Shown here: positions 6,922 through 7,834 of the stretch, in pieces
Layout: each line of letters starts with the position of its first letter
Position numbering within the stretch: position 1 is the stretch's first letter
Source of the DNA: Escherichia coli
GTDB taxonomy: Bacteria; Pseudomonadota; Gammaproteobacteria; Enterobacterales; Enterobacteriaceae
NCBI RefSeq assembly: GCF_051903065.1
Contig: NZ_CP178438.1
Length of the DNA: 64,000 nucleotides
Direction: 5' to 3' (one strand)
Translations under genes and position numbers: made by a program
Notes under the pieces: generated by a model
The model's database searches: none
What the model was told of the DNA's origin: nothing
Seen by the model: the letters and a program-made list of their open reading frames with translations, nothing else

Positions 6922-6929
6922 TGACAGGT

Positions 6930-7250
6930 GTTAGATTGCCTGATGCGCTACGCTTATCAGGCCTACGAATATCGTGCAATATATTGATTTTGCAATATTT
7001 TGTAGGCCGGATAAGGCGTTTGCGCCGCATCCGGCAGTTGTGCGGCGGTGCCTGATGCGACGCTGGCGCGTCTTATCATGCCTACAAAACTGCACTCAAC
7101 CGTAGGCCGGATAAGGCGTTTACGCCGCATCCGGCAGTTATGCGCAGATGCCTGATGCGACGCTTTGCGCGTCTTATCATGCCTACAAAACTGAACTTAA
7201 CCGTAGGCCGGATAAGGCGTTTACGCCGCATCTGGCATGAACAGTGTGCA
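6930..7250. repeat. REP/BIME cluster (several REP palindromes)
   Basis: Repeated GCCTGATGCGACGCT...GTCTTATCAGGCCTAC and GTAGGCCGGATAAGGCGTTTACGCCGCATCCGGCA units. Confidence 0.85.
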
Positions 7251-7339
7251 TTTTGGCAATAAATATGAAACCAACTGTCATGTCGGTTTTTTTAAAGGCC
7301 GAAGGTGGTAAACCTTCGGCCTTAGCGACGTTTCCTCAG

Positions 7340-7423
7340 TTATTCAATAAACTGACGGATCAGTTCCAGCAGCGCGATTAGCGCCTTAAGAACGATGAGA
7401 ACTTTATCGAGAAAAGTTTTCAT
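7340..7423 (-). CDS. Candidate type I toxin: 27-aa hydrophobic peptide MKTFLDKVLIVLKALIALLELIRQFIE (DinQ/TisB-like)
   Basis: Not in the ORF track (too short); hand-translated. Strong SD AAGGGAG 6 nt upstream of ATG; single predicted TM helix; an in-frame upstream ATG at 7495 would give 51 aa but lacks an SD. Confidence 0.5.
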   Translation of the reverse strand: MKTFLDKVLIVLKALIALLELIRQFIE

Positions 7424-7648
7424 CCGTTGCTCCCTTAAGGGAGAAAGACAATCACAGCTTACCCTTACGTTGCCTGTAACTATGATTTTCTTCATGTGCT
7501 AGATGAGGACTGCCTCTCTCCAAATTAGAGCACCAGAATCAGCACCACCTGTATCCTGACCAGGACTTAAAAGTACTTTTCCGCACTGCGGTAATCCCTT
7601 GAGGCAGTATCACTACTAGCGTCGGGATTGTATCGCCAACATAGCTGT

Positions 7649-7677
7649 TTGAATATGTAGGCATCCTGACTTATAAT
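7649..7677 (+). promoter_or_regulatory. Near-consensus sigma70 promoter (TTGAAT - 17 bp - TATAAT) for the candidate antitoxin sRNA
   Basis: -35 TTGAAT 7649-7654, -10 TATAAT 7672-7677, predicted TSS about 7684. Confidence 0.5.
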
Positions 7678-7683
7678 TCACTT

Positions 7684-7772
7684 GCTAGATGAGGACTGTT
7701 TCATTTCTGCCCGGAACCACCAAGTCTTGGGCGGAAAAAATAAAAAAACCGACTGTCATGTCGGTTTTTTTA
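7684..7772 (+). ncRNA. Candidate trans-encoded antitoxin sRNA (about 90 nt)
   Basis: Runs from the promoter above to the hairpin plus T-run terminator at 7749-7771; its 5' end (7683-7698 TGCTAGATGAGGACTG) is the exact complement of the toxin transcript region at 7497-7512. Confidence 0.4.
7735..7771. terminator. Bidirectional Rho-independent terminator (A-run, CCGAC-TGTCAT-GTCGG hairpin, T-run)
   Basis: Would terminate selU on the minus strand and the candidate sRNA on the plus strand; a degenerate copy lies at 7267-7293. Confidence 0.6.
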
Positions 7773-7834
7773 TATCTGTATTCTGGTGCAACCATTCTGT
7801 TCTCACGACAATCGCCGTTTCAGAATACCGCCCA

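Follow-up and report, generated by a model that had tools for sequence, protein, structure and literature searches.

In Escherichia coli K-12 the rhsD island separates ybbP from mnmH (also named selU or ybbB), so a genome in which these two genes stand close together with no rhsD between them raises the question of whether the island has been lost from the locus, or whether the locus carries an allele that never contained it. The question is posed here by a stretch of 64,000 nucleotides of the E. coli contig NZ_CP178438.1 (assembly GCF_051903065.1), which as a whole is referred to below as the window. A preliminary description of the window, made from its letters alone, had reported that the two genes are 913 bp apart, that a cluster of repetitive extragenic palindromic (REP) elements and a candidate toxin-antitoxin cassette fill the interval at 6922-7834, and that this looks like the Rhs-free state of the locus. 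The analysis described here indicates that the interval is very probably a Rhs-free allele of an ancestral, short, REP-containing type which never held rhsD, which has been enlarged by the amplification of a bacterial interspersed mosaic element (BIME) and by the insertion of a dinQ-like (dql) module, and which is exchangeable with alternative alleles. The spacer and its two flanking genes are as follows.

4507-6921, plus strand: ybbP (ABC transporter permease subunit), the left flank, an open reading frame (ORF) of 804 aa with its stop codon at 6919-6921.
6922-7834, no strand: the ybbP-mnmH spacer, Rhs-free, 913 bp, which resembles the K-12 rhsD island neither by BLASTN nor by TBLASTN.
7835-8929, minus strand: mnmH (selU/ybbB), the right flank, an ORF of 364 aa, also identified by the annotation of NZ_CP083585.

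The distance of 913 bp is exact, as established by the ends of the two ORFs and by the complete genome NZ_CP083585, which is 100% identical to the window across 6422-8334 (1,913 bp) and whose annotated gene order, tesA-ybbA-ybbP-dinQ-mnmH-allS-allA, backs the gene names used for the window, where allS and then allA lie beyond mnmH. The K-12 derivative RP437 was used for comparison, with the same two stop codons as limits; its ybbP-mnmH interval contains rhsD, ybbC, an orphan Rhs core fragment, small ORFs and a ylbG fragment, which agrees with the island that the preliminary description placed here in K-12, and it measures 7,301 bp, slightly less than the “about 8 kb” given there. When window positions 6400-8400 were aligned with the K-12 locus by BLASTN, the flanks alone aligned: homology stops at about 6927, up to which the ybbP flank is 98.3% identical, and restarts at 7833, and no part of 6928-7832 is present at the K-12 locus. 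Simple deletion of the Rhs element in situ cannot account for the window, since none of the spacer sequence occurs in the K-12 arrangement.

The absence of rhsD was also borne out by searches for Rhs sequence itself. TBLASTN searches of the whole 64-kb window with RhsD (1,426 aa), YbbC, the Rhs core fragment, the small ORFs and YlbG gave a best E-value of 0.3, and a BLASTN search of the whole window with the 7.3-kb K-12 insert gave no match. These searches recovered no large GC-rich core ORF of the Rhs type with YD repeats (about 1,200 aa; 0.3 being the best E-value for RhsD), no Rhs core extension in the spacer or the window with a downstream ybbC-like gene or orphan core fragments, and no ylbG fragment beside mnmH, the sole TBLASTN match to YlbG (E-value 1.5) lying elsewhere, at 1663-1890. 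The ORFs in the spacer are all of 55 aa or less. The GC content is 46.9% for the whole spacer and 43.8% for the part of it that is the dql cassette; this low-GC part was considered as a possible Rhs extension and rejected, its sequence being that of the cassette. The statement that 6922-7834 contains no Rhs core and no GC-poor extension therefore holds by both BLASTN and TBLASTN, and a search of the interval for remnants of either found none.

The two components that had been proposed for the spacer, the REP cluster and the candidate toxin-antitoxin cassette, were both confirmed.

6939-7239, no strand: BIME with six REP palindromes in alternating orientation, identified from Rfam matches and from tandem and inverted repeats.
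7251-7820, no strand: 570-bp insertion with a dinQ-like (dql)/agr type I toxin-antitoxin module, delimited by comparison with REP-only E. coli, the 58-bp state and E. albertii.

The REP cluster contains Rfam matches above the gathering score to naRNA4, a REP-derived family (naRNA4/CssrE), at 7005-7082 and 7105-7183 (79.1 and 77.2 bits; gathering score 59.5) and to ES036 at 6959-7001 (49.6 bits; gathering score 37.6), as well as a partial naRNA4 match at 7206-7242. It has a 101-bp tandem unit present 2.3 times over 7002-7237 (Tandem Repeats Finder period 101; direct-repeat families D1 and D2) and inverted repeats I1 and I2, and thus shows the alternating imperfect palindromes with a regular linker that characterize such clusters. 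Its alternating palindromes, its 101-bp periodicity and its position between convergent genes are those of BIME/REP clusters generally, and there is nothing unusual about it, the number of REPs being variable among strains from 2 to 6; other sampled genomes with the dql cassette are shorter by about 202 bp, which corresponds to two 101-bp units. The insertion is equally well delimited: it lies between gtgca and cagaat, which directly adjoin each other where the 570-bp block is absent, as in REP-only E. coli, in the 58-bp spacer of strain MS20653 and in E. albertii. The state of the window is not pristine: E. albertii and some E. coli have a spacer of REPs alone, to which the window adds extra 101-bp BIME units and this insertion.

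The polarity of the difference between the Rhs and Rhs-free arrangements was assessed by using MnmH to scan species-representative genomes. In E. albertii the two genes are separated by a 245-bp REP-only spacer that is collinear with the left and right ends of the window spacer, and the spacers of Buttiauxella spp. are 70-220 bp; because ybbP and mnmH are adjacent with short spacers in both, comparison of these sequences indicates that a short spacer of the REP type, free of Rhs, is the ancestral form and that the Rhs island is derived. In Kosakonia and Citrobacter the two genes are convergent neighbours without Rhs, E. whittamii carries a type VI effector island at the site (the Hcp-ET state described below), and Escherichia sp. 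E1V33, a separate GTDB species, carries the dql state at 99.3% identity. Citrobacter spacers were also considered as a guide to polarity in E. coli and were found not to be informative. The variable presence of Rhs at this site has been recorded before: the portions of Jackson et al. 2009 (PMC2935791) that deal with rhs position 3, between ybbA and ybbB, describe it as variably present and absent in E. albertii, and infer an origin within E. coli later than the divergence from the pathogenic strains, with which the polarity found here agrees, while Table 6 of Archer et al. 2011 (PMC3032704) gives no Rhs at b0496-b0503 in strain Crooks (ATCC 8739). Position 3 is the same site, between the ybbAP operon and ybbB/mnmH; in their portions on this polymorphism these two papers record presence or absence, and neither the BIME and dql/agr filling nor the Hcp-ET alternative is described there.

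A survey of 5,426 complete E. coli genomes determined how frequent each arrangement is. The K-12-type junction between ybbP and the rhsD upstream region was found in 2,879 genomes (53%), and one divergent strain of the Rhs class that was checked has a Rhs core pseudogene and ylbG. The dql cassette, at a coverage of at least 80%, is present in 1,314 (24%), with 1,257 records at least 99% identical, so that roughly one complete E. coli genome in four has a second DinQ-family type I toxin at ybbP-mnmH; at least 80% of window 6422-8334 occurs in one place in 1,325. Short joined spacers were counted in 784 genomes and include spacers of 58 bp (the type strain ATCC 11775 and MS20653), about 140 bp (CFT073, from the match span alone) and 240 bp (REP only; MS20657), as well as some 604-bp forms. 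The remaining junction, found in 574 genomes (10.6%), is that of Hcp-ET (Hcp with extended toxin): in sequence type 131 (ST131) the site holds an Hcp-ET type VI effector and three DUF2931 genes, the island of ST131 strain 751 (locus 14369-18371) encoding an Hcp-family type VI effector of 667 aa together with DUF2931 genes, and an Hcp-family effector with two to three DUF2931 genes occurs at ybbP-mnmH in these 574 genomes and also in E. whittamii. The four counts total 5,551, which is 125 above the number of genomes; the short-spacer and dql counts overlap, and the four states therefore cover essentially all 5,426 genomes. The site is thus a four-state polymorphism of Rhs, Hcp-ET, dql toxin-antitoxin and short spacer, and of the earlier phrase “the Rhs-free state” it is the adjective that survives and the article that does not, the window having one among several Rhs-free states.

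All of these states share the same breakpoints, the left ones lying a few bases past the ybbP stop codon and the right ones inside the last 2-3 codons of mnmH. The Hcp-ET/DUF2931 islands, which are not in the window and concern it solely as an alternative allele, have the same site and breakpoints as the window spacer. As a consequence the C-terminus of MnmH depends on the state of the locus: the protein ends in ...WVKAQ in the window (last codons at 7835-7843), in ...WVKAR in K-12 (locus 9717-9725) and in ...WVKTYACGY in ST131 (locus 18423-18443), and it has 368 aa in the Hcp-ET state. The 58-bp spacer (MS20653 locus 2001-2058; the same in ATCC 11775) contains only the left arm of the ybbP terminator hairpin (aaagccgtttat...), which is complete in the Hcp-ET state, and this shortest spacer is, to judge from its sequence, probably a secondary deletion and not the primordial state.

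The possibility that the dql cassette is mobile within E. coli was considered and found no support: searches with and without the flanks gave similar counts (1,325 and 1,314), which gives no sign of mobility, and the high-identity copies appear to be confined to the ybbP-mnmH locus. The remaining cassette matches are to canonical dinQ (70% identical) and to plasmid dqlB, and the cassette co-exists with canonical dinQ in one genome, NZ_CP083585, where there are two places. The module is made up of the following features.

7255-7294, no strand: left copy of a 40-nt direct repeat, a hairpin like the Agr terminator (family D3, 83% identity, 478-bp spacing).
7295-7323, minus strand: hairpin ggccgaagg...ccttcggcc, 3' of the toxin ORF, aligning with the K-12 dinQ terminator hairpin.
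7340-7423, minus strand: DinQ-family type I toxin ORF, 27 aa, MKTFLDKVLIVLKALIALLELIRQFIE (NCBIfam NF041472 toxin_DinQ, 40.9 bits; cut-off 30).
7430-7443, minus strand: Shine-Dalgarno region AAGGGAG, 6 nt before the ATG, within the palindrome ctcccttaagggag, identified from the sequence.
7491-7512, minus strand: putative antisense target in the toxin 5' untranslated region (UTR), repeating the start of the agr-like gene (direct-repeat family D4, 22 nt long and 91% identical to 7677-7698).
7649-7677, plus strand: sigma-70-like promoter of the agr-like RNA, TTGAAT-17-TATAAT (10/12 consensus matches).
7685-7773, plus strand: AgrB-like antisense (antitoxin) RNA (Rfam RF02891 AgrB, 53.6 bits, gathering score 40, E-value 1.5e-7, full model 1-84).
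7733-7772, no strand: right copy of the 40-nt repeat (family D3), in the Agr terminator region.
7740-7773, plus strand: intrinsic terminator of the AgrB-like RNA, a perfect 14-bp hairpin followed by a T-run.

The closest known relatives of this module are the K-12 DinQ/AgrB system of the arsR-gor region and the dql family (PMC5066626; T1TAdb, PMC8594479), which was defined on enterobacterial chromosomes and plasmids by Kristiansen et al. 2016 (PMC5066626). The toxin is DinQ-like rather than DqlB, since it passes the cut-off of NF041472 while the DqlB model NF041473 scores it at 24.5 bits, below its cut-off of 35, and a “dinQ” is annotated at its position in NZ_CP083585 by the Prokaryotic Genome Annotation Pipeline (PGAP). 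It is a small hydrophobic peptide (grand average of hydropathy +1.23) of the single-helix DinQ kind. In common with K-12 DinQ/AgrB, the module has a hydrophobic peptide of 27 aa with the core ALIALLELIR, a long toxin 5' UTR with conserved blocks, a divergent, non-overlapping Agr RNA whose 5' end repeats a segment of that UTR, and a homologous terminator hairpin, the hairpin at 7295-7323 being, by its alignment, the apparent positional homologue of the K-12 dinQ terminator. Unlike K-12 dinQ, it sits at ybbP-mnmH and not at gor-arsR, it has one agr gene, which aligns with K-12 agrA/agrB, in place of agrA and agrB, and its DNA is about 70% identical to the K-12 dinQ-agr region over about 205 bp, a match that includes the terminator hairpin and the 5' UTR blocks.

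A further difference from K-12 dinQ is that the LexA box is missing: no CTGT-N8-ACAG with at most one mismatch was found in 6922-7834, where the homologous position has diverged, while the K-12 box, CTGTATGATTATCCAG, was recovered by the same search as a positive control. A LexA box and SOS induction are properties of K-12 dinQ and not of every dql gene. The label “damage-inducible” that PGAP attaches automatically to the spacer dinQ is probably inaccurate, because the cassette has no LexA box.

The agr-like gene has the arrangement of an antisense regulator, encoding a divergent RNA which lies upstream of the toxin gene without overlapping it and which has its own promoter-like site and terminator; the second promoter hexamer ends at 7677, 7 nt ahead of the start of the Rfam match. 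Owing to the 22-nt direct repeat at 7491-7512 and 7677-7698, the Agr-like RNA is complementary at its 5' end to the toxin 5' UTR. When the first 45 nt of the Agr-like RNA were paired with the toxin mRNA using RNAduplex, the energy obtained was -54.7 kcal/mol, about 8 standard deviations better than that of 200 shuffles (-28.7 +/- 3.3 kcal/mol). The Shine-Dalgarno palindrome forms a local hairpin of -7.0 kcal/mol in these predictions, and the Shine-Dalgarno region is paired in the minimum free energy fold of the predicted full-length toxin transcript. By extension from the work of Kristiansen et al. 2016, the primary toxin transcript would be inert, with its Shine-Dalgarno region sequestered; to go by the homologous dinQ/agrB of K-12, the Agr-like RNA would pair through its 5' end with the 5' UTR of the toxin mRNA, and this pairing would block translation or trigger cleavage, leaving the small membrane peptide untranslated.

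The toxin/agr unit is bracketed by the two 40-nt repeats, which lie 478 bp apart. The left copy contains a terminator-like hairpin on the minus strand (7289-7268) and looks like either what is left of the 3' end of another agr copy or a terminator that works in both directions. In E. coli SCPM-O-B-8794 (locus coordinates 11104-11203) both ends of the cassette are joined through a single 40-nt repeat and the 478-bp unit is absent; this “solo hairpin” is the expected product of recombination between the repeats, and could be either a deletion scar or a pre-insertion state. In strain GMM076 a deletion of 108 bp, lying between the repeats gatgagaac and gatgaggac of 9 nt each (locus 2272-2281; window 7402-7512), has taken the Shine-Dalgarno region, the ATG start codon and the first seven toxin codons while keeping the agr-like gene, and looks like a natural inactivation of the toxin. 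It could be proposed on the basis of such forms that something other than plain allelic replacement operates here, either because ybbP-mnmH is a dedicated exchange site for toxin cargo, or because the dql unit is a hairpin-targeted, excisable miniature toxin-antitoxin module, or a cassette subject to site-specific exchange. The use of the same breakpoints by three unrelated toxin systems (Rhs, Hcp-ET and dinQ-like type I toxin-antitoxin), each of which supplies its own last MnmH codons, and the hairpin repeats with the natural solo-hairpin and toxin-start-deleted derivatives could together point in such a direction; we nevertheless consider proposals of this kind improbable.

How the allele in the window arose can now be weighed against the alternatives. 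Excision of a Rhs island from a K-12-like locus, leaving 913 bp behind, would accord with the frequent gain and loss of Rhs loci described in the relevant portion of Jackson et al. 2009 (PMC2935791), and small deletions do occur at the locus, as the 108-bp and solo-hairpin cases demonstrate; but a deletion could not regenerate a spacer of which nothing between 6928 and 7832 exists in the K-12 arrangement, the ends of that spacer are collinear with those of the Rhs-free spacer of E. albertii, no Rhs, ybbC or ylbG remnant lies within it, and the last mnmH codon differs between the two states, so that this explanation is effectively refuted and retains only a very slight probability. Fainter still is the likelihood that the spacer hides a degraded core or extension, a “relic” in the terms of Jackson et al. 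The best TBLASTN match within the spacer, between RhsD residues 1265-1299 and window 7024-7149/7170, would favour a relic with its E-value of 0.011 when the 913 bp are searched alone, yet it has an E-value of 1.3 window-wide, is not significant, and lies inside the translated REP cluster, in palindromes that match naRNA4, while the rest of the spacer is fully explained by the BIME and the dql/agr module. Equally negligible is the chance that a repeated Rhs region was collapsed in assembly: Rhs cores, being present in several copies, can disrupt assembly from short reads, but 1,325 complete genomes share this arrangement, among them one that matches the window at 100% across 1,913 bp, and the clean junctions enclose a spacer with coherent content of its own.

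The most probable of the alternatives, although we judge it unlikely, is secondary loss by allelic replacement, in which an ancestor that had rhsD later acquired a Rhs-free REP/dql allele through recombination in ybbP and mnmH; the DNA would then be of the ancestral type, and the lineage could not be called never occupied. This accords with the mixed states of related strains, rhsD being present in K-12 and B and absent in Crooks, and with those within phylogroup B2, where the Hcp-ET island of ST131 contrasts with the short spacers of CFT073 and the type strain; the 1,257 records of the cassette at 99% identity or more fit a recent spread by recombination, and the cassette also occurs at 99.3% in Escherichia sp. 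E1V33. Such a replacement would nonetheless leave the identity of the sequence unchanged, as Rhs-free DNA with no remnant. The preferred interpretation, an ancestral-type allele that never held rhsD, is itself weakened by several points: the lineage may have retained the allele vertically or may have regained it by recombination from a Rhs-free donor; E. fergusonii and Salmonella are not among the recovered outgroup loci; the “empty” 58-bp spacer of B2 may be a secondary deletion rather than the primordial spacer; for the dql module, expression, toxicity and control by the antisense RNA are deduced from homology only; and its regulation may differ from that of dinQ, given that the K-12 LexA box is not conserved. 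On the preferred interpretation, the BIME of an ancestral spacer would have been amplified to six REPs and the 570-bp module, with its DinQ-family type I toxin and single divergent AgrB-like antisense RNA, would have been inserted. The alternative alleles at the same breakpoints (the rhsD island, the Hcp-ET/DUF2931 island or a short spacer) would be swapped by homologous recombination through the conserved flanks ybbP and mnmH.

The absence of rhsD here is accordingly that of a normal allele and is neither an anomaly nor the scar of a deletion. The presence/absence polymorphism of Rhs and the dql family have each been published, and PGAP annotates the toxin; the variation is of an ordinary, known kind, whose value is mainly for annotation and comparative genomics, and which should not surprise a specialist or open any long-standing question. 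Among the papers listed by a literature search, none pairs dinQ with the locus terms mnmH, ybbP or selU.

Some minor observations were made in the outgroup scan. Between mnmH and ybbP, Citrobacter spp. (loci 11092-14992 and 11154-12287) have a Met-type ABC transporter (an NlpA lipoprotein, an ABC_tran+NIL protein and a permease), a 377-aa ORF with no Pfam match, or both, which indicates that the content of the site varies across genera too. An MnmH 97-100% identical to that of E. coli is encoded by CASFSC010000074.1, a contig from a metagenome-assembled genome labelled “uncultured Alistipes sp.” that also encodes a RhsD C-terminus, and by a 394-bp contig of Trinickia soli; both look like E. 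coli contamination in public assemblies.

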